From: a virus
IMG/VR virus record: IMGVR_UViG_3300014913_000006
Reading direction: 5' to 3' (one strand)
Length of the DNA: 64,000 nucleotides
Of this stretch, positions 1 through 37,190 are shown piece by piece; within the stretch, counting starts at the first letter, position 1, and each line of letters begins with the position of its first letter. The translations under genes and the position numbers were made by a program. A model generated the notes under the pieces. The model was not told the origin of the DNA and ran no database searches. It was given only the letters and a program-made list of their open reading frames with translations.

Positions 1-412
1 TCACCTCATCGGGTAGCCCAGTCAGATCGTACCTCTTCAGGAACTCTGTAGCCCAGACGGCACCCGTGCTCTTGAATGACCCTCTTGTGGCAATCCGATG
101 CTGCCCCTCATGACGATAAAGGATACCAAGCCACCCGTCGTATTTCTTGAAGATACGGAATCCATCATGCCAGGGAAGCGCCCACTCCTGGGTGTCTCTT
201 CGCTGGTTCATGTTGAAGAACTTAGGAAATGGCCGTGCCACTACCTTTCCTGTCTTGCGATCGAAGATGATCCCCCGGCTATTCAGCGTGAGATCATTCC
301 AAGTCTTACACCAGTTGGTGTAGCTGTAGATGCGCATATCGCCCAGATCGTCGCACCGAAGCAATCGCTCAGCTACAAGCTTGTTTCGATCTTCTATGAA
401 ATCATACTTCAT
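1..412 (-). CDS. T4 Rnl1-like RNA ligase, N-terminal part (runs off the window); not in the ORF track
   Basis: Manual translation from ATG 412 gives MKYDFIEDRNKL...SRGIIFDRKTGKVVARPFPKFFN...KKYDGWLGILY...IATRGSF. RG..F...RPF.KFFN, the KxDG motif I and TRGSF are typical of Rnl1. ATGA overlap with the upstream gene. Confidence 0.85.
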   Translation of the reverse strand, partial: MKYDFIEDRNKLVAERLLRCDDLGDMRIYSYTNWCKTWNDLTLNSRGIIFDRKTGKVVARPFPKFFNMNQRRDTQEWALPWHDGFRIFKKYDGWLGILYRHEGQHRIATRGSFKSTGAVWATEFLKRYDLTGLPDEV

Positions 413-1389
413 ACCGTCACCTCAACTGGGTGTGCGGCACTGGCTGTATCATTATAAGCAACACACACATCAAGACAGTTTTTTGCACAGATTGGATCAG
501 CACCGCTATCGTGCTCTAGAATCCAACGTAGCCGATCCGCTCTCATGTTCGGCCCAACCTCTCCGATTGGGTCTCCACCTTCGCGTAGGTGGATAATGCA
601 CGGGAAGTGCCACTTGCCAGCGACAGCCATGTCGTCCAGGGCCAGCCAACACTTGCGACAGTTCCCGTCACAAATACCACGTACATTCTGACCAGCGTTG
701 AGATTGCCAATCCGGTACTTCAGGATAGGATACTTGTCGAGAATCTCATTTGGCAAATCAGCAAGATTCGTCAGAGCCTTGTTGTACTGTGCTGCTGGGA
801 TGACGCGGATGTCAGAAACCCCTAGACTGTCTACGAACAGAACCGCCTCAACACACTGATCAACGTTGGCCTCCGTGAATACCATTCCAACCGTCACATA
901 AGTGATCTTGCTCAAAGTGCGAATCGATTCAACAGCTTTCGCCCATGCGCCCTTCACACCACCAGCCATGTCTGTGCCGACAGCGCAGCATCCACCGTCA
1001 AGGCTAATAGAAAAGTCGTTTACACCGGCCCCTACCAATGCCAAGTATGTCTCAAGTTTTGCTGTTCCGTTGGTAGAGATTGCAATGCGTTCAACCCCGC
1101 CTCCGCGGCATCGATCGACCAACTTGCCAAGCCCCTTGTATAGAGTAGGTTCTCCACCAGAGAACCGAACGTTCTTTAGCCCTTGGGCGATCCAGAGGTC
1201 AACTGTTTTGAGCGCCTGTTTGAACGGCATATCTCCACGAATCTCCGGTCTTACACCACGGCAATACGGGCACCGTAGGTTACAGCGATCAGTAAGGATC
1301 AACTCACATCGCTGCAACGGAGAGGTGTCGCTAGCGTTCATCGCACGCTTGTCAGATAGCGTATAGAATCCAATGTCTTCAAGCTTCAT
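409..1389 (-). CDS. Radical SAM protein (MoaA/PqqE-like)
   Basis: CNLRCPYC (CxxxCxxC), FSGGEP, ISTNG, ISLDG and C-terminal Cys. Start is ATG 1389 after an AGGAGG RBS; the ORF-track extension overlaps tRNA-Tyr. Confidence 0.9.
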   Translation of the reverse strand: MKLEDIGFYTLSDKRAMNASDTSPLQRCELILTDRCNLRCPYCRGVRPEIRGDMPFKQALKTVDLWIAQGLKNVRFSGGEPTLYKGLGKLVDRCRGGGVERIAISTNGTAKLETYLALVGAGVNDFSISLDGGCCAVGTDMAGGVKGAWAKAVESIRTLSKITYVTVGMVFTEANVDQCVEAVLFVDSLGVSDIRVIPAAQYNKALTNLADLPNEILDKYPILKYRIGNLNAGQNVRGICDGNCRKCWLALDDMAVAGKWHFPCIIHLREGGDPIGEVGPNMRADRLRWILEHDSGADPICAKNCLDVCVAYNDTASAAHPVEVTV

Positions 1390-1407
1390 GACAACCTCCT
1401 TCACTAC

Positions 1408-1491
1408 TGGGCTGGGCGGGACTCGAACCTGCACGCCCCCGAAGGGAACCGCGTTTACAGCGCGGCGGGCCACCAATTGCCCAACCTACCC
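1408..1491 (-). tRNA. tRNA-Tyr(GTA), long variable arm, no encoded CCA
   Basis: Anticodon arm CGCG-CTGTAAA-CGCG; T arm GCAGG-TTCGAGT-CCCGC. Confidence 0.9.
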
Positions 1492-1544
1492 TACTGCAAC
1501 TTCCTTTTTCTTCCGATCCTAGTTTACCCTGCCTATGTTTTCAA

Positions 1545-1628
1545 TGGCCTCGGCTGGATTCGAACCAGCACGCCCTTTCGGACACGGACATTTGAAATCC
1601 GCACGTCTACCATTTCCGTCACGAGGCC
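1545..1628 (-). tRNA. tRNA-Leu(CAA)
   Basis: Acceptor GGCCTCG/CGAGGCC+A; anticodon arm CGGAT-TTCAAAT-GTCCG; long variable arm; T loop TTCGAAT. Confidence 0.88.
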
Positions 1629-1630
1629 AA

Positions 1631-1703
1631 CGGGCTGGGAAGGATTCGAACCCTCAACTTTCGGCTTTGGAAACCGACGCTCTTCCAATTGAACTACCGA
1701 CCC
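1631..1703 (-). tRNA. tRNA-Trp(CCA)
   Basis: Anticodon arm TCGGT-TTCCAAA-GCCGA; G73 discriminator; T loop TTCGAAT. Confidence 0.9.
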
Positions 1704-1707
1704 ACAA

Positions 1708-1789
1708 TGCCCCAGGCAGGAGTCGAACCTGCAACCCTTTCGAGACTGGTTTCTAGGACCAGCGCGTCTGCCAGTTCCGCCACTGGGGC
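1708..1789 (-). tRNA. tRNA-Leu(TAG), atypical C33/A37
   Basis: Acceptor GCCCCAG/CTGGGGC+A; anticodon arm CTGGT-CCTAGAA-ACCAG; long variable arm. Confidence 0.85.
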
Positions 1790-1800
1790 TTTTGTCGAGA

Positions 1801-2355
1801 TTATGGTGTTCGTACAGTACCACCCCCGCCGTGTCGCAAAATAAATCCCGCAAGCTCGTCAGAGAGTCTTCGTAGCTCGTTTGCCGTAGTAGAAAACGAG
1901 GTTGTGTGTCGCTTAGATCGTAGGATGATCGTCACATCCGAATCTGACGACAACACGGTAATCTCTCCATTGCCAATAGACATAGTATGTCCGAACCGAA
2001 CAGTAGCCTGATCCATTCCAACAGCCAATGCCTCATGTAGCTCGGCAAACATCGCCGGGGAATCCAACATACGACAAAGGACAGGACCAACAACAGGGGA
2101 AGCCACAACGCCAGTCGATCGATCCCGAGACACAAGCAACACGAACATGTCGTTGATAGAATGGATGCTGAAAGTTGCACTCTTGGAATCAATGTGGCCT
2201 ATTTCTACCCCCTCTCCCGCAATTACGCTTTCTACATCCTGCGCAAGCGGTAAGAACCGGTCTACTGATTGTATGGCTGTTGGGCTAGCCAATACCACAA
2301 ACATCAAACTCAAACTGATCCAAGATGCCCCACTGCCAATCTTTTCTTTCGACAT
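1801..2355 (-). CDS. Hypothetical protein
   Basis: 184-aa ORF with RBS, located between tRNA genes. Confidence 0.55.
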   Translation of the reverse strand: MSKEKIGSGASWISLSLMFVVLASPTAIQSVDRFLPLAQDVESVIAGEGVEIGHIDSKSATFSIHSINDMFVLLVSRDRSTGVVASPVVGPVLCRMLDSPAMFAELHEALAVGMDQATVRFGHTMSIGNGEITVLSSDSDVTIILRSKRHTTSFSTTANELRRLSDELAGFILRHGGGGTVRTP

Positions 2356-2369
2356 TTCCTTACCCCTAA

Positions 2370-2452
2370 TACCCCTGGTAGGATTCGAACCTACAAGCCC
2401 TTTCGGACAGCGGAGCTTAAACCCGCCACGTCGCCAGTTGCGTCACAGGGGC
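2370..2452 (-). tRNA. tRNA-Leu(TAA)
   Basis: Acceptor GCCCCTG/CAGGGGT+A; anticodon arm GCGGG-TTTAAGC-TCCGC; T loop TTCGAAT. Confidence 0.88.
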
Positions 2453-2479
2453 TACAATCTCCCAAGCTGTTTTTCTAAC

Positions 2480-2553
2480 TTACTCGAAGGGACTCAAACC
2501 CCCGACTTCCTGGTCCCAGGCCAGGCGCTCCGGCCAGACTGAGCTATACACTG
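2480..2553 (-). pseudogene. Pseudo-tRNA-Pro(TGG)
   Basis: D arm TAGCTCAGTCTGGCCGGAGCG and anticodon arm CCTGG-CCTGGGA-CCAGG are intact, but the T loop is TTTGAGT and the 3' acceptor strand does not pair with CAGTGTA. Confidence 0.75.
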
Positions 2554-2582
2554 TTGCTTCGTTGTTCTGCTTAGTATATATC

Positions 2583-3221
2583 CTACGTAGAATGGCCTAT
2601 CACTTCAACTTCGATTCCACGCTTCCTTGCTTCACCGACTATATGCTTAGTACCCTTCGACTGGGATAGATCATCGTGGAAAGCAATAAGAAGGTGGGGC
2701 TTAGTATCTAGCATCTTGATGTTTCTTCTTATCCCTGCTGATTTCCCATACTTCCTCCATGCTGCCGGAAACTCAACCACCTCAAGGCCAAGGTCCAACG
2801 CCGTCTCCCGAGCTATCAAGTCAGCACCTTTACAGCCACCCTCGATGATTATGCTGTCAGATGGAAGATCGAACAATCGTTTGAAGATTGCTTGGCCATT
2901 ACTCCAATCCCGACCACCACAAACTAGCACCTTCATGGGTTTCTCCAAATACTCGACGATCACATCTCCATGACACGCCTTTGGCTTACAGAAACACCCC
3001 AGCCTCTTACCCCTCAACTCTTCCACTCGTGCGGCAAACTCCTGGTCAACCCGCAACCGCTTCAGGAAATACTCCCGGTACAACGCGATTGCCCGCTCAC
3101 GACCACCATCCCGCGTTACGCTATATGGGTTACCCCAATAGCCATCGTGGCCATGTCCCTCCCGACCGACGTACACATCGTATTCGTGTGTCCGAATGTT
3201 TACTACTGTGGTCTCAGCCAT
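2583..3221 (-). CDS. DUF4326 domain fused to a YspA/SLOG-like (DUF2493) domain
   Basis: N-term YDVYVGR...WGNPY...LRGKRLGCFCKPKACHGDV; C-term VLVCGGRDW...GADLIA...AGIRRNIKML...SKGTKH. Confidence 0.85.
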   Translation of the reverse strand: MAETTVVNIRTHEYDVYVGREGHGHDGYWGNPYSVTRDGGRERAIALYREYFLKRLRVDQEFAARVEELRGKRLGCFCKPKACHGDVIVEYLEKPMKVLVCGGRDWSNGQAIFKRLFDLPSDSIIIEGGCKGADLIARETALDLGLEVVEFPAAWRKYGKSAGIRRNIKMLDTKPHLLIAFHDDLSQSKGTKHIVGEARKRGIEVEVIGHST

Positions 3222-3367
3222 GTCTCAGCCTGTTCCTTAGCCTCATCCCACACTGGCTTAAACGCCTCAGCCGACCAATGGAACTCCCCGGTCTCTCGCC
3301 TCTCTTGGGTGACCATCACAGCCAGCATGTTCGAGATGACCTTCTTTGCGTCTGGCTTAACCTCCAT
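3203..3367 (-). CDS. Small hypothetical protein (MEVKPDAKKV...)
   Basis: GGGAG RBS plus ATG. In frame with the upstream ORF after its TAG, so the two may be one split gene. Confidence 0.5.
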   Translation of the reverse strand: MEVKPDAKKVISNMLAVMVTQERRETGEFHWSAEAFKPVWDEAKEQAETWLRPQ

Positions 3368-3409
3368 CGGGGCTCCCGACCGAGCCTTATACGCTGATGC
3401 TGATGCTTG

Positions 3410-3592
3410 CTATCCAGCAAGCTGAATCGCAACATGAGCCTCGGCTATATCATAATGCTGTGCCAATTCTGCTGCCCAGGCGGGTATCTCCCACATCCCT
3501 GTTTCGGAAAGCTGGATCAAGTTTCCACAAACCTGATCGGCCTCTTCTTCTGTCAACAGTTCCCGCTTGATGATCTTCTGCCCAGTCGTCAT
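3410..3592 (-). CDS. Small hypothetical protein, first gene after the attenuator
   Basis: GGAG RBS and ATG 3592. Confidence 0.6.
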   Translation of the reverse strand: MTTGQKIIKRELLTEEEADQVCGNLIQLSETGMWEIPAWAAELAQHYDIAEAHVAIQLAG

Positions 3593-3607
3593 GGTCCGAT
3601 ACTCCAC

Positions 3608-3724
3608 AAAAAAAAGCCTGCGATTTCTCGCAGGCTAAGGTCTCCATCAAAAAAACAGACAGACCCTAGCCCGCATCACCACCCAATGCGCGTGGATTGC
3701 GTGCGGCGACTAAATTGGCGGGCT
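3608..3724 (-). promoter_or_regulatory. Transcription attenuator (anti-antiterminator / antiterminator / intrinsic terminator)
   Basis: Segment 1 AGCCCGC (3718-3724) pairs with segment 2 GCGGGCT. Segment 2 GCGGGCTAGGGTCT (3661-3674) pairs with segment 3 AGACCTTAGCCTGC. Segments 3:4 form AGCCTGCGA-GAAA-TCGCAGGCT followed by a U tract. Confidence 0.8.
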
Positions 3725-3749
3725 TATACTGTCTATGTTTCATCTTCAT
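3666..3749 (-). CDS. Leader peptide MKMKHRQYKPANLVAARNPRALGGDAG (27 aa)
   Basis: Perfect AGGAGG (3757-3762) 7 nt before the ATG, directly downstream of a promoter. The stop codon lies inside attenuator segment 2. Confidence 0.75.
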   Translation of the reverse strand: MKMKHRQYKPANLVAARNPRALGGDAG

Positions 3750-3770
3750 CGTTCTTCCTCCTGCTATATC

Positions 3771-3799
3771 ATTATACCCCAAACTCCGGTGTTTGTTCC
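3771..3799 (-). promoter_or_regulatory. Class A phage promoter GGAAC-N18-TATAAT
   Basis: Same motif and exact 18-nt spacing found at 7 loci in the window. Confidence 0.75.
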
Positions 3800-3981
3800 A
3801 CAAAAAGTGAAAAAATCTGGTGCCGCCCCTTATGGGACGACACCGTTACTCCACCCACACATGGTGGGCAAGCTAGAGCAAAGCCAGCAACAACCACACA
3901 AGGCCGCCACCGACGCCAACGGCCACAATGTATCGCCACATAGCGACAACCCAAAAAATCGGCTTAAACCACCACGGAAAA

Positions 3982-4203
3982 TCAAACATCTGTCTCTCCA
4001 CCTTTCATGTGCTTGAACTTCTCCATCTGTCCAAGCCTTTTCTCAGCCTGCTTGCGAGTCGGATAGCATCCGAACTTGCGACCTGTCTTCTCGCTGTACA
4101 CACAGTAGGGCTTACTCTTCGGACCGTCCTTGCGAATCACAGCCGTCGCAGCCTCCATCGCACGTTCCGCTGCCCTCTTGACTTCTTTATCCCAGTCTGT
4201 CAT
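3982..4203 (-). CDS. Small basic hypothetical phage protein
   Basis: YCVYSEKTGRKFGCYPTRKQAEKRLGQMEKFKH; RBS present. Confidence 0.65.
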   Translation of the reverse strand: MTDWDKEVKRAAERAMEAATAVIRKDGPKSKPYCVYSEKTGRKFGCYPTRKQAEKRLGQMEKFKHMKGGETDV

Positions 4204-4355
4204 CCTGATCCTCGCCCCCCCCCACTCTCAATACAGCACGATCCAGCATGAAAATCACCTCGATGCCTAAAGCGTGCATACGGCGCCTCCTGGGTTTGGG
4301 GGTCTCACGACCCCAGCGAGACACGAAAAGGCAGCAGCGGCCACTACAGGCGTTT

Positions 4356-4831
4356 CTAGGCTACCTCTGGTCGTTCGTCACCAAATCCGTCAGCCGTATA
4401 ATACTCACGCTCTCTTGCTGTCTTCTTCGCGTGACAATTGGCGCAACGGACTACACATTTGTCGATTTCTTTCAGCACAGACGCCCACGGGTGGGTGGTT
4501 AGCATTGTTGTTATGCCTCTCGTCTTTACCCCCCCCGCACATGGTCAAATTCAAGCGTAGCTGGATGTTTTTCTTTGCAGTCAACTCACGGATGCGACTT
4601 CAAGTATTCCAGCATGAGTGGCCTATTGATAGCGGCGGTACGTTCGTAATTCGATCGAGACCTGCTGATAGCACGCCTCCGAATATCGGGTTGGTTGGCA
4701 TATCGTTTCTTCTCGTATGCTCTGTGACACAATTTGCACCACGAACAATAGCCATCCTTCCGACTTTTCCGTTTGCGAAATTCGGATACTGGCTTTTCTA
4801 CTCTACATTGTGAGCACGTCTTTAATCTCAC
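4356..4831 (-). pseudogene. HNH endonuclease pseudogene
   Basis: KTCSQC..CSWCKLC N-terminus; HP*VDC nonsense at 4586; FDHVRG followed by a frameshift at a G8 run (4529-4536); the other frame continues KEIDKCVVRCANCH. Confidence 0.8.
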
Positions 4832-5040
4832 GGCAAACTATCCATCGCTGCAACAAAGCCATCTTCGAACTTATCGGCGTTGTCGAAAAAAAGTTCCCAA
4901 CAGACTCCAAGGCCGTCCACACAAGCTGAGATATCCCACCCTTGAACATCGCTTGCAGCCCCCTCAAGGAGATTGCAACCACTACACATGACTAAACATG
5001 TAAGAAAAACCACCAAAGAAATCTTACTTCGCAACATCAT
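4828..5040 (-). CDS. Entericidin-like small lipoprotein
   Basis: Signal peptide plus lipobox SGC, then NLLEGAASDVQ, resembling the EcnA/B pattern CNT..G.G.D. Confidence 0.55.
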   Translation of the reverse strand: MMLRSKISLVVFLTCLVMCSGCNLLEGAASDVQGWDISACVDGLGVCWELFFDNADKFEDGFVAAMDSLP

Positions 5041-5428
5041 TCCACACACCTCCGAGTTCGTCCCACTTTGATATCGGAAATTACCTTCCGCTGTACTCCA
5101 AACATTACCGCGATCTCTTGTTGTGTTCTAGTCCCGAGTTTAAGCAATTGACGGATTACTGGTATGTCAAGGTTGGTCGACTTAGCGGCACCGCACTTTT
5201 CCCCATTATTGTCTGGCTGAAAGTGATTACCATGTCGCATTTTATCAGTCATATTGTTAGCATGGGTATCATATCTCAAGTTGATCAAACAATTATTGGC
5301 TTTGTCGCCGTCATTGTGACACACCTCAGTATTTTTGGGCTGATCTGGACGAGTCGTCTCACTCTACCATGTGTAGAAATCTGATACACGCTCTCAAAAC
5401 CATGGATATCTTTCCACTGTTCAAGCAT
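5037..5428 (-). pseudogene. NUMOD4-HNH homing endonuclease, internally deleted and frameshifted
   Basis: EQWKDIHGFESVYQISTHGRVR (NUMOD4) in one frame; VCHNDGDKANNCLINLRYDTHANN plus an HTH in another. Confidence 0.8.
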
Positions 5429-5678
5429 TGTCTCCCCATCCAGAACCACTACCCCTTTTTCCAACATTGGGGGGTTTCCGCATCGGCGGAAACCTACGAT
5501 AGATTTCCCCAGCCGGTACTTTGCGGAGTTCTTGCAACCAAGCATCTTCGGCTTCTGGTGTCCAGGCGTTTGGACTACCTATAGAGTCAAGCACCTCTTG
5601 GTTTGGCGGGTCTCTTTTGACCCGCTCCCGCTCCTGAACTCGCCGTTGTTTCTTTTTCTTCTTGCTGCTCTGGCCCAT
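5421..5678 (-). CDS. Hypothetical basic protein
   Basis: 85-aa ORF with RBS. Confidence 0.5.
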   Translation of the reverse strand: MGQSSKKKKKQRRVQERERVKRDPPNQEVLDSIGSPNAWTPEAEDAWLQELRKVPAGEIYRRFPPMRKPPNVGKRGSGSGWGDNA

Positions 5679-5924
5679 CGTTTATGTATCCTCGTTTCGG
5701 AGCATTTTCGCCAACATCTTTTGCCACATCGGCCCAATATCATTATGCGCACAACCCTTGATCCATCGTCCCATGACGAAAGCGGCATAGCATTGTGTGG
5801 CTACGCCCATCTCTTTTTGCAATGAGCACAGAATTTTGGATCAGCAGCATACGCAGTTAAAAACCGCTTTCTCTGTGTCTCATGCCCACGGCGAGCAGCG
5901 GCTCGCATCGCATCTTTACCAGTA

Positions 5925-5996
5925 AGCCCACTGTCAGACATGCACTGACCTCTCCTGTTTACAAGACAGGCGCATCGCTATCTATGCTTAGCGGGC
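5925..5996 (-). tRNA. tRNA-Thr(TGT), non-canonical D and T loops
   Basis: Acceptor GCCCGCT/AGTGGGC; anticodon arm CCTGT-CTTGTAA-ACAGG; T arm GTCAG-TGCATGT-CTGAC. Confidence 0.75.
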
Positions 5997-6002
5997 GCAA
6001 AT

Positions 6003-6242
6003 TCATTTCGTCACCTCTTGTACAACTTCCGCTAAGTCATCAAGACCCCTACGGGATACCACCACAACCTGTTTTTCTTTGTTGTCTGGGTGTGTGTAAT
6101 CATTTGCGATCAATAGGTTCTTGGCCCAACCAATCAAATTCTCTCGTTCGTTCCAGATACACCGTGGACATCGCCAGCCATTCATATGCCGATAGAGGCC
6201 AACGACCGCTCCACAACGATCACACTTTATTTTTTTTGACAT
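6003..6242 (-). CDS. Small Zn-ribbon hypothetical protein
   Basis: CDRC...CPRC. Confidence 0.6.
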   Translation of the reverse strand: MSKKIKCDRCGAVVGLYRHMNGWRCPRCIWNERENLIGWAKNLLIANDYTHPDNKEKQVVVVSRRGLDDLAEVVQEVTK

Positions 6243-6266
6243 CTTCTGGATTCATACCATCGTATC

Positions 6267-6566
6267 CTAAAAGCCCATCTGAACTTCATACTCTCTCCAT
6301 ACAGCCGCTCGAAATTCTTTCGAGAGTGGATGGACGGCGTAGGCCATCGCCTTCTTCCTACCCGTCGCACGGCAGAAGTTGTCGCCGGGATGACAAACTG
6401 CCAGTCCACGACCAACCATCTTTCCGTTCAGATTGACCGTAGCCAACGAACACCTACGATTTTCATCAACGCAGATACCTGTCAGACCCTCGATCTCGTC
6501 TGGCGCACAGAACTTGTGGTCAAACCGTACTTCAACTTCGTCGGAACCTAATGCTACTCTCAACAT
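6267..6566 (-). CDS. Hypothetical phage protein
   Basis: AGGAG RBS; G.AVCHPGDNFCRATGRKKA motif seen in phage hypothetical proteins. Confidence 0.65.
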   Translation of the reverse strand: MLRVALGSDEVEVRFDHKFCAPDEIEGLTGICVDENRRCSLATVNLNGKMVGRGLAVCHPGDNFCRATGRKKAMAYAVHPLSKEFRAAVWREYEVQMGF

Positions 6567-6598
6567 CTATTTTCTCCTTTTGTGTCGAACCTACTCAA

Positions 6599-6736
6599 TG
6601 GCGAGCGCTGGATTCGAACCAGCAGTCCTCTTCCTTCACCCCTTGGTCCCAGAAAATGGGGACGGTGGATTACAGGACGCCCCACCAAGCTTGCTCCAAC
6701 AATACACTCCCTAACAAGTAGTGCGTTAAACTCGCC
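6599..6736 (-). ncRNA. 138-nt tRNA-like RNA with acceptor stem and T arm, D and anticodon arms replaced by long hairpins
   Basis: GGCGAGT/GCTCGCC+A termini; GCTGG-TTCGAAT-CCAGC; starts 2 nt after tRNA-Glu. Confidence 0.7.
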
Positions 6737-6738
6737 AC

Positions 6739-6811
6739 TACCCCCAGCGAGATTCGAACTCGCGTCATCGGACTGAGAATCCGATATCCTCTGCCACTAG
6801 AAGATGGGGGC
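6739..6811 (-). tRNA. tRNA-Glu(CTC)
   Basis: Acceptor GCCCCCA/TGGGGGT+A; anticodon arm TCGGA-TTCTCAG-TCCGA; T loop TTCGAAT. Confidence 0.9.
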
Positions 6812-7015
6812 CTCATCGGGCCTCGCACCCGTTCGGCGGTCACTATTCCGGCGTTCACCGCTAACTACCGCGACATCGGTTTCGGCACAGTTTCTTGACC
6901 CGGAACAGCGTACAGTAGGTTGCCTTCGTTCGCATCTGACCCGGCAACGGCAGTGATGCTTACCCACCCGTAAGTGCTACTGTCCTCCGATTATCGCTGT
7001 CCACGACGGCCTCAT
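6812..7015 (-). ncRNA. Candidate ~200-nt structured RNA directly 5' of tRNA-Glu
   Basis: Nested helices GGACAGCG/CGCTGTTC, ACAGTAG/CTACTGT, CTTAC/GTAAG, GTTGCC/GGCAAC, GCGGT/ACCGC; no credible ORF. Confidence 0.5.
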
Positions 7016-7044
7016 GCTCTCTCTTGTGTCGCCAAGAGTTAGAT

Positions 7045-7233
7045 TCATGTCCGGGAACCAGTCCCGGCTACTCTCTTCTTTGCCGGATACTCGTTCATAT
7101 ATAACCTCTGTGCATTACAGCAGTCGTCACACCTACATACCCAATGTGATCGATAACCACCACGATTTTCTGATCGTTCAACAACGAGCAGTTTTCCGAA
7201 ACGAATATTAGTAAGATCGATAAAGCTAGACAT
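7045..7233 (-). pseudogene. Truncated homing endonuclease N-terminus
   Basis: IDLTNIRFGKLLVVER...HWVCRCD, the same N-terminal module as 48801 and 51407, followed by unrelated sequence. Confidence 0.7.
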
Positions 7234-7235
7234 TG

Positions 7236-7553
7236 TTACTCTGCGTCTCCTGCATTCCCTTCTCTTCGTCTCGACGGCAATACGCTCGGGTTGGGCGATG
7301 GAAATTTCGGCTGGCCCGTTGGAGGCGGCGATATCGGCGGTAGCTCAAACGGCTCTGGCCGATCCGCATCAAGCTCTAGGTCTTCCGGTAATCGCTTCGG
7401 AAGTATGGTGACTGGCGGTGATTGGATTCGTTCGATCTCGTTGAGTAGAAACTGCACCACACCACACAACTCGCTGACCAACACCTTCGGGTGCTTGGTT
7501 GCTGTAGACCGACTAATGTCGGCAACTTTCGCTTTTGCTTGTTCGAGATTCAT
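7236..7553 (-). CDS. Hypothetical protein with Pro-rich C-terminus
   Basis: RBS plus ATG 7553, downstream of a class A promoter. Confidence 0.6.
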   Translation of the reverse strand: MNLEQAKAKVADISRSTATKHPKVLVSELCGVVQFLLNEIERIQSPPVTILPKRLPEDLELDADRPEPFELPPISPPPTGQPKFPSPNPSVLPSRRREGNAGDAE

Positions 7554-7598
7554 CTCTTTTTCTCCAAGGCCCAAAACTGAACTTATCTGCTACATACC

Positions 7599-7627
7599 AT
7601 TATACATGCAACTCAGGAGATTGTTCC
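7599..7627 (-). promoter_or_regulatory. Class A promoter GGAAC-N18-TATAAT
   Basis: GGAAC AATCTCCTGAGTTGCATG TATAAT. Confidence 0.75.
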
Positions 7628-7654
7628 CGAAAAAACAGAAAATCATATTTTATT

Positions 7655-7790
7655 TTTTATTTTGGCGTGAATACATCAAAGCCCTTTTGATCGACCATCC
7701 ATTGTTCAATCTCCATATTATAAGACTTGCAGCTATTCCGGTTTCTTCTGGCCAAGCAGCAATACACTTAGTTTGCCCATTTAACGTTCC
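7655..7790 (-). pseudogene. Homing endonuclease C-terminal fragment
   Basis: NGQTKCIAAWPEETGI...WRLNNGWSIKRAL resembles NNKTQCLSAWAEEYG...WPIKEA in 48801. Confidence 0.6.
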
Positions 7791-8108
7791 CTACAACAGA
7801 TACAAATACAATAACCACCAACCGACAAGAATCACACATCCGACAATTCCAAATACTGAAACGGCGACCCTCCAGGGCCGCTTCTTGTGCCGCAACACCC
7901 AACCCATGGTGGTGCAAGACAGCAAAGTGATAGTCAGCTTGAATACGACCAAGCCGCCGTCTCCGAAATTCTCCCAGACATGCAGGGCTATGGGATTCGC
8001 TTCCTGGAAATCACTGCATGTTCGGTCGAAGTACAGTGTCGTTCCGAGATCACCACACGACACAAGGAACACGATAGTCGGCATGATTATGCGCCACCAT
8101 TTGGCCAT
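7791..8108 (-). CDS. DUF5658-like membrane protein
   Basis: DLGTT...FQEANPIA...GLVVFKL; 3 hydrophobic segments. Confidence 0.7.
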   Translation of the reverse strand: MAKWWRIIMPTIVFLVSCGDLGTTLYFDRTCSDFQEANPIALHVWENFGDGGLVVFKLTITLLSCTTMGWVLRHKKRPWRVAVSVFGIVGCVILVGWWLLYLYLL

Positions 8109-8151: not shown

Positions 8152-8230
8152 GTCACTAAGGTAGCGAACGACGCGCAAGGATGGCATACTTTGACGCCTG
8201 CCCACCGTTCCGTTCATAGGTATTATACAC

Positions 8231-33430: not shown

Positions 33431-36400
33431 CTAGATTCGCTTGCCCTTCTTCACAGCCTTGAAAACCCCGCCCTGACGTGTTTCGTGGGCGTTCCTCATA
33501 CGGCCAACTCCAGCCCCACGGTACATTGCTTCGTTTTTCGGTGATTTCTTCCTTTTCTCGATATTCCCTGCCACGTCTTCATAGTCGATATCATCAGGGG
33601 TGGCGATTTCAGTGTTGTAGATGTACTTGTGAGACAGCAGGAGGGCTGTGTAGCGATCCTTGAGAAGTCTACCCTTACGGGCACGACCCTCGACGGCTCC
33701 GACCTTGACAACCTGTGGGGTGTCGAATCTCTCTCTGCCTGTCGCAGTTTCGCTCATCTGGATGGTACAAAGCTCATTCTTTAATTCTTCAAGATTGAAC
33801 ACATTTTCCTCGAAGGTGTCGAAAATGACACCAGCCGACTTTTCAGCCTCTATGGCGGCATACATTTTCACGCTATCGAAGGCGGGGAACAATAGGGTAC
33901 GTGTCTCCAGGCTCTTGTGCAGGGCAATGTTGGCATCCTGGTTGTACTCAGTGCTTTGCTTGACGAGATGGAGGATGTGGCGTCCATCTGTCTCGCCATC
34001 GGTTTCCTTCGGTTCGTCGAAGTCGATTACCTCATAGATCGGGAAATCGCCCTCATCCATATTCATCAGTTTCTTGTTTCGCAACATCTCCGCTACGGCG
34101 TAGCCACCACCCTGACTATCCATCTCGATGCGCACAGGACTGAATAGCCGAACCACTTCACGAATCCTCGCACAACAATATGCGTAGTAGTCATCGTCGG
34201 TAATCAACCCGCGCTTCTTGCGCTTCATGAATTCCTTTTTGTTCACAGCCCAACAATAGACTACGCGATAGTGGTTGGGCCAAACTTCGGTCATAGTGAT
34301 CGCAAGATTGTCTCGTTCGGCAGCGGGGTCAACACCCATCACATACTTCCGCTTCGACTGGGCTCTCATAAGTGGAGTGAATGTTACAGCACCGTCTGGT
34401 GTTGTTATCGGCTTATTGGGTCCGACAGTACATGCCTCAATCAAGCTACGTGGATAGAACCCATCTGAGTCTTTGACGAAAACAGCCCCATACTCCATGA
34501 GGTAGATGTTGCGAGGGAGTGTCGCCTTGGCGTGAGCCAACTGTCTTTGGTCCAGTAGGCCTTCGGGTAGATGTGTATGCGGGATACGAATGATAGAATA
34601 GTCCCTATGGTTGAAGCCATCGGGGACGAGGTTCTCGCCTCCGAAAATCTGAGCCACCTTCTCTGGATCACCTTTGCTGGCAATGATCTCTTTCCACATC
34701 TGATATCTCTTGGCAAAATGATTGAAAGCATAGTATGCTGTACCAGAATACACGATTTGGTTACCGCGCATCTTATCATCGTCGGTTGTCAGTCTCTTCT
34801 TCTCCCCTGCTGGCAGATCGAGTTTTGCCAACTGTTTCTCAAATGCTAGTTTCTTCGCTTCCTCCACAGGAGTTTTTGCCGTCGCGGCAAAACCACGCAC
34901 AACCACATCGAATACATCCTCTGGGATGGATGCGAACTCGTCGGCGATAACGACGTTAGCGCGGAAACCTCTGATTTTCGTGTTGTGACTGTAAAAGCCA
35001 TTGGCACAATATTCATGGCCATCTGGAACATGAACATCGAATGCAACACACTCATCATCTTCTATTGAAACGATTTCGTCATAATAAACATCTGGATCAG
35101 CAAGACAACGAACAGTATCAATGCGTGAATCATCTATGTGTCCATAAACTCGTAGAAAATTATCAACCAATGGCCTACTAACGGATTTTTTAACTTTTAG
35201 TCCACCCGCACAAACAGAAACACAATTGCTAGTACCGTGTTCAGCTCGATTGTTCTCTGAAATATCTATCATATCATCTAATACATCTGGAATGTTATCG
35301 TTCTGATCCATCCATCGTTTTTTCTTCTCGATTCCAGCCAGTAATTTATCTTGTTTCCTCTTCAGACGAAAACCTATTTCAGTAGCGAAAATCAACACGT
35401 CCCTACCAGTTATTGAAAGCTCATAGCATTCTTCCCATTTTTCGTCACGTTTACGAGATTTGACATGTGCTACGATTCCATAATGCAATAATATATACTG
35501 AAGTTGTCTAACTAGTTCTCTGCTGGTGTTATAAAATGTGACACCTATCTGGGTGCCACCTCGCTCTGTTGTAACCTGAACATGGCCATCCGTGTCGAAC
35601 AAACCGGAAATAAAAGCGGATGTTATATTACGTGGTGATTTGAGAATGGTGGACGGGAATTGTTTGTCTTTTGTTTTGAGATGATCAACGTCTATATCAA
35701 ATCTTCTGAATATAGCATCAATCTTTTTGTGTCCATACATATTCCAATGCACTATATCGGAAGATTGCTTGAAAGGACCAACAGCCTGAATGGCCTCGGC
35801 TAATTCTGTATCTTGTGTAGCAAAACCCAATCTGTATCCATTTTGGGCAATGAAACATCCACCCCCAGTAAGCAAACCGATACCATAAGCTTCGCTTTCT
35901 GAAATCTCACCATTTCCATTATGCCAGCGGACAGAACGATCTAATAAAATACGATCACCAATTTTTATTTCATCCATCTGTACCCACACAACACACTTGT
36001 TTCTAACAACTTTTAATCGATGATTATGAGTTGCGTTAAATTCGAATCCATGATGTGTCTTGATTTTTTTGGTTTTGGATGTTCCATTGCAATAAGATTC
36101 ATCACTCAATCTGAATTCTTTATTACCCCATACCAGTCTTTCTCTGTCTACGATATTTTTAGCAGATTGAAATAATGGCTGATCATCTGCGAGGGTTCCG
36201 AAACCATCTCCATAAAGTGTAAGCGTATCTTTTGAAGCACAGCCGTCCCCCATAGGCAGTGCGTAGATAATCGAATCGCCAATGCGAAAATAGCAAAGGT
36301 CCACATTCTGTCTGGGGCCAGCCTTCTTCCCGCCACCGACAATGTTGCGAAGAACAGGAGCATTTGTCCAGATGGTATCTATGTAGTTGAACACCAATCG

Positions 36401-36793
36401 AGCTTGACGTAAACCAGCACCAACGATAACGATCTTGGCACCTGGGTCCAACAACGCCCTTAGAACTGCATACACGGCCAGCATAAAGGACTTACTACCA
36501 CCACGACAGGCGATCAGCATTGGGAACGGAGTGTTCCACATCATCTGAAGCGTAGCGATCTGGATAGGAAACAGATCAAGCCCTAAGACCACCTTCGCTG
36601 TCCAGCCAATGTAGTTGATATCGAGCATCCTGCTGACGACTACCTGATCCAGCGGGTCTTTGGATTGCTTCAAATCCGTGAAAATGTGTTTGCGCACTGT
36701 TGGCACACGATCACGGTATGGGAACAGATACCCATATCGGCCTTGATCTGAATGCAATAAATCGTGTAATATTGTTTGTTGTTTTTTATTCAT
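33431..36793 (-). CDS. terL: Terminase large subunit containing an intein
   Basis: Walker A-like ACRGGSKSF, Walker B IRGFRANVVIADEF, MEYGA.F, nuclease MGVDPA and KDRYTA. Confidence 0.9.
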   Translation of the reverse strand: MNKKQQTILHDLLHSDQGRYGYLFPYRDRVPTVRKHIFTDLKQSKDPLDQVVVSRMLDINYIGWTAKVVLGLDLFPIQIATLQMMWNTPFPMLIACRGGSKSFMLAVYAVLRALLDPGAKIVIVGAGLRQARLVFNYIDTIWTNAPVLRNIVGGGKKAGPRQNVDLCYFRIGDSIIYALPMGDGCASKDTLTLYGDGFGTLADDQPLFQSAKNIVDRERLVWGNKEFRLSDESYCNGTSKTKKIKTHHGFEFNATHNHRLKVVRNKCVVWVQMDEIKIGDRILLDRSVRWHNGNGEISESEAYGIGLLTGGGCFIAQNGYRLGFATQDTELAEAIQAVGPFKQSSDIVHWNMYGHKKIDAIFRRFDIDVDHLKTKDKQFPSTILKSPRNITSAFISGLFDTDGHVQVTTERGGTQIGVTFYNTSRELVRQLQYILLHYGIVAHVKSRKRDEKWEECYELSITGRDVLIFATEIGFRLKRKQDKLLAGIEKKKRWMDQNDNIPDVLDDMIDISENNRAEHGTSNCVSVCAGGLKVKKSVSRPLVDNFLRVYGHIDDSRIDTVRCLADPDVYYDEIVSIEDDECVAFDVHVPDGHEYCANGFYSHNTKIRGFRANVVIADEFASIPEDVFDVVVRGFAATAKTPVEEAKKLAFEKQLAKLDLPAGEKKRLTTDDDKMRGNQIVYSGTAYYAFNHFAKRYQMWKEIIASKGDPEKVAQIFGGENLVPDGFNHRDYSIIRIPHTHLPEGLLDQRQLAHAKATLPRNIYLMEYGAVFVKDSDGFYPRSLIEACTVGPNKPITTPDGAVTFTPLMRAQSKRKYVMGVDPAAERDNLAITMTEVWPNHYRVVYCWAVNKKEFMKRKKRGLITDDDYYAYCCARIREVVRLFSPVRIEMDSQGGGYAVAEMLRNKKLMNMDEGDFPIYEVIDFDEPKETDGETDGRHILHLVKQSTEYNQDANIALHKSLETRTLLFPAFDSVKMYAAIEAEKSAGVIFDTFEENVFNLEELKNELCTIQMSETATGRERFDTPQVVKVGAVEGRARKGRLLKDRYTALLLSHKYIYNTEIATPDDIDYEDVAGNIEKRKKSPKNEAMYRGAGVGRMRNAHETRQGGVFKAVKKGKRI
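34982..36241 (-). mobile_element. Intein (420 aa) with LAGLIDADG endonuclease
   Basis: GDG|CASKDT ... ATHNH (block B) ... FISGLFDTDG ... FDVHVPDGHEYCANGFYSHN|T; lower GC than the exteins. Confidence 0.92.
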
Positions 36794-37190
36794 ATCGAAT
36801 ATCCAACCTATCTTTTTTAACATACCTGTTACACGCCAGACACAAAAGAGATAAATTGTTGAGATCAAAAAGCGTTGCCAACTGTTCACGAGATAATGCT
36901 GACGAAATTGGTATAAACCGATGTTCGTAGTTACCTAATTTTGTAGACCGCCTCTTTCTAACCCATTCGTTTTTCTTCTTCTTATATGAATCTGTCGAAT
37001 GATTGATTTTCTGATGTTGTCGCCGACACAGCAAACATTCCGGTTTCCCAGAAGGGTTGATATAAAATTCTGTTATCCCATGATGTCTACAAAGCATTAA
37101 AGCTCTCTTGTCATCAATCTTACGAATGATCGCTTTTTTGGGTTGACCAGGGGTAATATTCGTACTGAGATCATATCTCTTAGCACCCAA
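36786..37190 (-). pseudogene. HNH endonuclease with an in-frame internal deletion
   Basis: Aligns with 12380/29480 but jumps from LGNYEHR to FIPISSA, losing the CxxC...IDH segment. Confidence 0.7.

Follow-up and report, generated by a model that had tools for sequence, protein, structure and literature searches.

The 64,000-nt stretch of DNA analyzed here (the window) comes from the virus record IMGVR_UViG_3300014913_000006 of IMG/VR, and it carries, just before an island of transfer RNA (tRNA) and RNA-repair genes, an element of about 190 nt that is, on the comparative sequence data presented below, a genuine attenuator of the ribosome-mediated type, conserved in relatives and placed in a new setting. 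The element combines a promoter, a strong Shine-Dalgarno (SD) sequence, a short leader open reading frame (ORF), an intrinsic terminator, and an antiterminator helix. These parts are conserved in related phages, and the two helices are mutually exclusive. Because the module recurs with changes in these relatives, it lies beyond what chance would produce. The island behind it holds a gene for a DUF4326-SLOG fusion protein, several tRNA genes, a radical SAM gene, and a gene for an RNA ligase of the Rnl1 type. We consider it probable, with appreciable room for doubt, that the module is a transcription attenuator in which slow decoding of the leader raises read-through into this island. Coordinates refer to the window unless a relative is named, and the window features they describe lie on the minus strand.

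The window belongs to a very divergent tailed phage, with genes for a portal, a terminase containing an HNH insertion, and a tail fibre. Searches with megablast and blastn gave zero DNA-level matches to the region among GenBank phages. The relatives are all contigs from uncultured phages, about 30-180 kb long, and marine sediment is the label on several of them. We gathered them by three routes: a scan for exact motifs, which is biased toward one arm of the antiterminator (segment 2); a collection of contigs chosen only for encoding a homologue of the DUF4326-SLOG protein, and so without bias as to the leader; and a scan by promoter and SD alone, which gave L045. The second route returned the module in L001, L002, L034, L038, L040, and L041. 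Together, the routes yielded 17 distinct sequence variants of the module, so that the window is compared with 16 others. Among 23 metagenome pattern matches, nine were rejected as chance matches without a module (L010, L012, L020, L021, L024-L026, L029, and L031). The exact terminator sequence in L007, a 572-kb IMG/VR contig, was likewise set aside as a 28-nt chance match with no leader there.

Mutually exclusive helices in the leader RNA

The terminator (3608 to 3636) is of the intrinsic kind, with a 9-bp stem and a GAAA loop in its hairpin (3636-3615), followed by an eight-U tract (3615-3608). Segment 2 (GCGGGCTAGGGTCT, 3661 to 3674) includes the stop codon of the leader (3668-3666), and segment 3 (AGACCTTAGCCTGC, 3630 to 3643) pairs with segment 2 and has 7 nt in common with the 5' arm of the terminator. 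In the window, this 2:3 antiterminator helix spans 14 bp, with reverse complement identity at 12 of 14 positions and G-U pairs at both mismatches. The fold of the 171-nt leader has an energy of -58.6 kcal/mol, with z = -3.4 relative to shuffled sequences, and in this minimum free energy (MFE) fold segment 2 is paired upstream with the AGCCCGC at 3724-3718 and the terminator is formed. That upstream partner belongs to segment 1 (3703 to 3724), which consists of AGCCCGC and GTCGCCGC (3710-3703) and pairs, in the MFE fold, with segment 2 and with the G-rich tract beside it.

Both the terminator and the antiterminator are kept across the family. For the terminator, 90% of the alignment cells are paired, compared with 29-49% when the partners are slid, compensatory changes occur in six of the nine pairs, and the score was not reached in any of 500 shuffles. 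For the antiterminator, 82% of the cells are paired, compared with 15-51% for slid partners, even though the alignment is a plain MAFFT one in which four rows align poorly. In alignment A1, the rows for L011 and L017 have misregistered ends, which does not materially alter the counts. When 2,000-3,000 windows within ±1.5 kb were ranked as partners of segment 3, segment 2 came top at 12 of 16 loci (z = -3 to -6.6) and at rank 6-19 at the other four.

In all variants the antiterminator overlaps a terminator that has a U tract, and the 2:3 fold, at -17.5 to -28 kcal/mol, exceeds the terminator in stability in every one of them. Its inner helix (GGUCU with AGAC) falls outside the terminator, so that a model with a terminator only gives no reason for conservation there. 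A transcript ending at segment 3 has an MFE fold with the antiterminator in 14 of 16 variants, and the full-length transcript has the terminator in 15 of 16. This pattern, in which the antiterminator is favored at segment 3 and the terminator once segment 4 is added to complete it, fits a kinetic switch.

Immediately 5' of segment 2 lies a G-rich, SD-like tract (GGTGGTGAT, 3675 to 3683) that is nearly invariant in alignments A1 and A2. The antiterminator fold leaves it unpaired, and its end is 6 nt short of the last sense codon. We can only speculate that it might hold a terminating ribosome on segment 2, or that it might bind something else. The near invariance of this tract, given that it lies outside helix 2:3, favors an alternative account in which the same RNA switch is set by a trans-acting factor, either a phage or host RNA-binding protein or the 3' end of a tRNA that pairs with UGGU in the GGUGGUGAU tract in a T-box-like manner; the setting in a tRNA island points the same way. 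The UGGU is missing in L013, however, and a switch governed by such a factor would have no need of a conserved SD, an open frame, or a fixed stop position. Rfam gave neither the T-box (RF00230) nor any other family for the leader at E values up to 1 over positions 1-8000. A Stem I or specifier-loop region is also missing from this RNA, which begins only about 15 nt before the ORF, and we rejected a T-box on these grounds. We judge control by a trans-acting factor very unlikely. An Rfam match to OmrA-B at 3609-3696 (23.5 bits) falls below threshold, and we read it as the terminator only.

Another feature of the region is a run of seven U at 3648-3654, which lies 3' of the long 1:2 hairpin and within the antiterminator loop, where it might make the polymerase pause or serve as a first, weak terminator. 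A U-rich run is present at the same place in L015, L019, and L028 and is missing in the L001 group.

The leader frame and its constraints

The leader ORF (3666 to 3749) runs from an ATG at 3749 to a TAG at 3668-3666, comprises 27 codons and the stop, and ends in Gly-Gly-Asp-Ala-Gly. Its SD, AGGAGGAA (3755 to 3762), stands 5 nt 5' of the ATG, and 15 of 16 variants have either GGAGGAA or AGGAGGAA at a distance of 5-8 nt on the 5' side of the start codon. The leader ORF and its SD, together with the promoter, segments 1-3, and the terminator, had all been listed in the original prediction, and all are present after small corrections to the coordinates. The leader frame is open in all 17 variants, at lengths of 21, 22, 26, 27, 29, or 46 codons and with at least five length changes. 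In all 16 tabulated variants the stop is found at positions 7-9 of segment 2, and L045 has a TAA at the same place in the motif. The stop is also a TAA at that helix position in L040. L041 has different C-terminal residues and a TAA stop, yet the stop keeps its place in the helix and the RNA pairing is retained.

Among close relatives, the ratio of nonsynonymous to synonymous differences per site (pN/pS) in the leader is about 1, and in several pairs every change is nonsynonymous. The neighboring DUF4326-SLOG gene has a pN/pS of 0.19-0.26 in the same close pairs. Between L001 and L018, the leader has a pS of 0.11 and a pN of 0.10, against a pS of 0.43 in the DUF4326-SLOG gene, and between L018 and L023 the leader pS is 0, against 0.49 in that gene. 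The bases of the leader thus change more slowly than the synonymous sites of its neighbor, yet its pN/pS is about 1, and the constraint therefore acts on the RNA and not on the peptide. These rates fit a leader that would be a cis-acting RNA with a translated but nonfunctional peptide.

The short frame could alternatively encode a functional micropeptide, such as a precursor that the radical SAM enzyme encoded downstream would modify. The leader does have a conserved C-terminal Gly-Gly-(Asp/Gly)-Ala-Gly, and the radical SAM protein is nearest to peptide maturases of the SPASM type and to MoaA, with all NCBIfam scores far below cut-off. The conserved C-terminal codons coincide with segment 2, however, and in L041 the C-terminus differs while the RNA pairing persists. 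The leader pN/pS of about 1 also stands against the far lower ratio of the neighboring protein, and the peptide has no family in PHROGs or NCBIfam. In L001, which has the leader, only about 560 bp separate the last tRNA (ending at 5818) from the Rnl1 match; a gene of about 1 kb does not fit into this gap, which means that L001 lacks the radical SAM gene. We therefore rejected the pairing of a ribosomally synthesized and post-translationally modified peptide precursor with a radical SAM maturase, as the two are not co-conserved and the peptide is not under purifying selection, and we regard any functional micropeptide as extremely improbable.

Proposed mode of action and its alternatives

Under the reading that we favor, a dedicated promoter would give an RNA that starts almost at the strong SD, about 15 nt before the ORF, and ribosomes would translate the 27-codon leader up to a stop codon in the middle of segment 2. 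With the lead ribosome at the last codons or at the stop, segment 2 would be masked, the terminator would form, and the transcript would end at about 3608. Should segment 3 instead emerge while segment 2 is uncovered, helix 2:3, the more stable of the two, would form and the polymerase would read on. Such read-through would reach the DUF4326-SLOG gene, the tRNAs, the radical SAM gene, and Rnl1. Since it is the timely ribosome that would mask segment 2, read-through should rise when the leader is decoded slowly. That the position of the ribosome decides the outcome is what we infer from this arrangement, and the same holds for the identity of what slows it.

The module could also lack any regulatory role and be a small stand-alone transcript, either a tiny gene or a small RNA of about 160 nt, with its own promoter, a leaky terminator, and a 2:3 pairing that serves RNA stability or processing. 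Phage tRNA regions are rich in small units with their own signals, some relatives lack the module, and the leader has neither a codon run nor a conserved 1:2 helix, all of which would suit such a transcript. This explanation does not sit well with an antiterminator whose overlap with the terminator arm recurs in every variant and whose fold is favored at the decision point, with a stop codon held in place within helix 2:3, or with a peptide that escapes protein-like selection. In L001 and L002, moreover, the ribosome-binding site (RBS) of the next gene follows directly after the U tract with no promoter between. The DUF4326-SLOG gene there starts about 20 nt after the terminator, which leaves no room for another promoter. 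We consider a stand-alone transcript unlikely.

What might slow the ribosome is suggested by the composition of the leaders in relatives. We defined the leader core as the leader minus Met1 and minus the last five codons, which are segment 2. The cores are enriched about threefold in Pro and Asn, twofold in Arg, 1.8-fold in Ala, and 1.6-fold in Leu. The tRNAs which follow the DUF4326-SLOG gene in relatives are, in order, Pro(UGG), Asn(GUU), Ala(UGC), Leu(UAA), Leu(UAG), and Leu(CAA), with Arg(UCU) later. In L034, 14 of 16 core residues are amino acids with a downstream tRNA, against an expected fraction of 0.30, and in L001 the count is 20 of 23, against 0.47 (indicative p = 3e-6 and 8e-5, respectively). 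The match at the amino acid level was above expectation in 10 of the 10 relatives tested. The leaders of these relatives are thus built largely of Pro, Asn, Ala, Leu, and Arg, for which the operon carries tRNAs, and this suggests feedback on the phage's own tRNA supply. In the window, leader codon 13 is UUA, which the phage's genes use less than any other Leu codon, with a relative synonymous codon usage (RSCU) of 0.49, and CCC has an RSCU of 0.60. This hint of a role for rare codons is suggestive only.

Several results weigh against control by slow decoding, and they begin with the p-values of these leader-tRNA enrichments, which treat related sequences as independent and are indicative only. 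At the codon level, with wobble rules applied, the match is weaker (p = 8e-4 in L034 and 0.008 in L013) and is not significant in several relatives. The leader has no run of one codon. It had been proposed that the leader codons TAT, TTA, CCA, and TTG link the window's leader to its downstream tRNAs; this link is at chance, as 3 of 21 leader codons are readable by downstream tRNAs, against 0.12-0.13 expected, and the window gives no signal. The window's own array, seen to base 1, has lost its Asn and Ala tRNAs, and its tRNA-Pro has decayed.

Other points on the same side concern the helices and their distribution. The original prediction had described a full trp-style architecture. Its translated leader, its stop codon in segment 2, and its antiterminator that excludes the terminator hold up in the 16 other variants, but the 1:2 helix is not conserved family-wide. 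In the window, this protector helix is good in the MFE fold (p ~0.07 against shuffled upstream sequence). Across the family it is no stronger than background duplex blocks or shuffled upstream sequence, with p mostly at 0.1-0.9 in the other variants, and the location of its partner shifts between codons 1-5, 5-11, or 11-16. As the 1:2 helix is no better than background, we take what the family conserves to be a switch of two helices that the ribosome would read. A check of conservation and covariation, which the prediction had called for, was likewise borne out in part: the leader, the covariation of the terminator, and the 2:3 pairing are kept in relatives, whereas the 1:2 helix is not and the covariation test for the antiterminator is not significant, with 38 of 500 shuffles reaching its score. 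The antiterminator falls short in this test because segment 2 hardly varies and the changes are nearly all one-sided, from G-C to G-U. C/U changes are to be expected in a terminator arm anyway. Finally, the module is missing from four relatives (L033, L036/L037, L042, and L006), and we conclude that it is common but dispensable.

A broader function is conceivable. Phage tRNAs are now discussed as replacing host tRNAs lost to defence nucleases (PMC10264068). The module might serve as a gauge of translation capacity, in which depletion of tRNAs by anticodon nucleases or by infection itself would make the leader ribosome lag and so release spare tRNAs, Rnl1, and other RNA-repair genes, forming an inducible circuit for counter-defence and tRNA homeostasis. 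We put this forward tentatively, as a possibility that we doubt more than we believe. Only the context makes it plausible that the module would sense tRNA damage inflicted by host defence: the island includes Rnl1, and phage tRNAs are currently seen as replacements of the kind just described (PMC10264068). An element of this size is a concrete and testable object for studying how phage tRNA expression is controlled. A conserved, translation-coupled switch before a tRNA and RNA-repair island would let one ask whether phages fit their tRNA supply to their need.

Flanking signals, downstream genes and known systems

The promoter (3771 to 3815) comprises a T-rich block (3815-3802), a -35-like GTGGAA (3801-3796) that sits within a conserved ACAAAC block, TTTGGGG (3783-3777), and TATAAT (3776-3771). 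Its blocks (T-rich, ACAA-C, TTTGGGG, and TATAA) are unchanged across nine aligned relatives, every variant has this promoter block, and TTGGGGTATAAT at this promoter is its sole exact occurrence in the 64-kb window. The -10 element lies 22 nt 5' of the leader ATG. A consensus promoter scan did not list this promoter because its spacer is 18-19 nt. An extended -10 sequence, TGGTGTATAAT, recurs before several other genes (at 8222, 10608, 24954, and 33414). It is unlike the TTTGGGGTATAAT of the leader promoter, which suggests two promoter classes.

Just before the promoter, an intrinsic terminator (3819 to 3844; 11-bp stem with 8 G-C pairs and a T-rich tail) ends the upstream transcription unit, and it is also present in L013, L038, and L045. 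Directly 5' of it is a conserved hairpin, CCCACC-ATGT-GTGGGTGG followed by AGTAAC, found at 3845-3875 in the window, at 3440-3500 in L013, and at about 2715-2790 in L038. This hairpin stands at the end of the preceding small membrane-protein gene and is retained even in L033, which has no attenuator. Relatives carry a second conserved RNA-like element, made of a hairpin, GTAATCCACAAAGGCTT, and another hairpin (L041 2530-2600, L034 2745-2815, L001 1980-2030, L002 3715-3770, and L013 3545-3605). It lies 5' of the promoter in most of them and, in L013, within the 5' untranslated region between promoter and leader; we looked for it in the window and did not find it. In L002, a tRNA-Ala(CGC) at 3634-3704 stands between the conserved promoter and a lengthened leader of 46 codons whose SD and terminator are both weak.

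Downstream of the attenuator, a conserved junction (GGAGTATCGGACCATG, 3590 to 3605) supplies the RBS and start codon of the first gene. The junction and close variants of it are kept (window; L001 2330-2348; L013 3745-3761; L015 and L022) while the next gene varies between DUF4326-SLOG and various small ORFs, and the start codon after the terminator looks, from these sequences, like a boundary at which the module recombines. In the window, the first gene is a 60-aa ORF of no known family (3410 to 3592) that is missing at this place in L001 and L002. A 54-aa ORF, also of no known family, follows at 3203 to 3367. Next comes the 212-aa fusion of DUF4326 with a YspA-type SLOG domain (2583 to 3221; Pfam PF14216 at 4.7e-24 and PF10686 at 5.6e-12), for which we found 167 homologues. 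Judged by the downstream protein, the closest cultured phages are the Vibrio phages vB_VpaP_SJSY21 and Vp_R1, which are near-identical to each other; at the gene for this protein, Vp_R1 has neither leader nor tRNAs.

The tRNA region begins with a degenerate tRNA-Pro(UGG) (2487 to 2546) that has C33 and no acceptor stem. It matches the Rfam tRNA model at 31.1 bits over model positions 8-63 only and is not called by ARAGORN. It is followed by tRNA-Leu(UAA) (2370 to 2452), a 184-aa ORF of no known family (1801 to 2355), tRNA-Leu(UAG) (1789-1708), tRNA-Trp (1704-1630), tRNA-Leu(CAA) (1629-1544), and tRNA-Tyr (1491-1408). The radical SAM gene occupies 409 to 1407 (Pfam PF04055 at 1e-19); its listed ORF begins at 1476, inside tRNA-Tyr, so the true start must be further downstream. 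The last gene seen encodes the N-terminal part of an RNA ligase of the T4 Rnl1 type (2 to 412; Pfam PF09511 at 1.3e-10 and phrog_562 at 1.1e-26) and runs off the window. The SLOG/YspA fusion, the pseudo-tRNA-Pro, the five tRNAs, the radical SAM gene, and Rnl1 had all been named from the sequence beforehand, and searches with Pfam, ARAGORN, and Rfam agreed with each assignment.

From 3615 down to base 1, the minus strand has no terminator-like site. A promoter scan of the same interval gave just two weak matches, at 3478-3449 and 1544-1516, and over the whole 8 kb scanned such matches are as frequent as chance predicts. The earlier observation that no other promoter was noticed before the tRNAs is supported, also by the short gap in L001 and L002.

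Relatives can carry heavy tRNA loads, with up to 19 tRNAs within 14 kb. One contig, L027, has a transfer-messenger RNA in its tRNA island (1408-1758) with the tag peptide GESQFRMAA as called by ARAGORN, and the same program called a tRNA with a four-base anticodon (ccga) in L013 (565-642). Elsewhere in the window, a 1152-aa ORF (33431-36889) has matches to terminase large subunit, helicase-like, and HNH endonuclease families and may be a terminase with an inserted element.

The phage module can be compared with three known kinds of leader. With T-box riboswitches it shares a choice between terminator and antiterminator that is, or in the phage would be, tied to tRNA status, as well as a G-rich, UGG-containing tract beside the antiterminator. 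It differs from them in having no Stem I, specifier loop, or T-box bulge and in having a conserved translated ORF. The vmlR leader of Bacillus subtilis is an attenuator in which stalling on an upstream ORF (uORF) responds to translation stress (PMC9226507). In both vmlR and the proposed phage mechanism, a ribosome that slows down or stalls on a short uORF with mixed codons would lead to an antiterminator and read-through, and the output aids translation. The stalled ribosome of vmlR blocks an anti-antiterminator, however, and such a helix is unsupported across the phage family; the two also differ in setting, one being in a host and the other in a phage.

Leader-peptide attenuation is the textbook circuit of the enterobacterial amino acid operons, with trpL, hisL, pheL, leuL, thrL, and the ilv leaders as its examples. 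The pheL leader attenuator has been reviewed (PMC3082878). In the literature, we found no description of a leader-peptide attenuator in a phage or before tRNA genes. The phage module has no sequence relation to the enterobacterial leaders, lacks their tandem codon run, and does not conserve their 1:2 protector. It shares with them a promoter-proximal short ORF with an SD, a stop codon in segment 2, an antiterminator that overlaps the terminator before the first structural gene, and, in the relatives, a leader composition biased toward what the operon supplies. In the enterobacterial operons those structural genes encode biosynthetic enzymes, whereas here, in a phage, they are genes for tRNAs and RNA repair.

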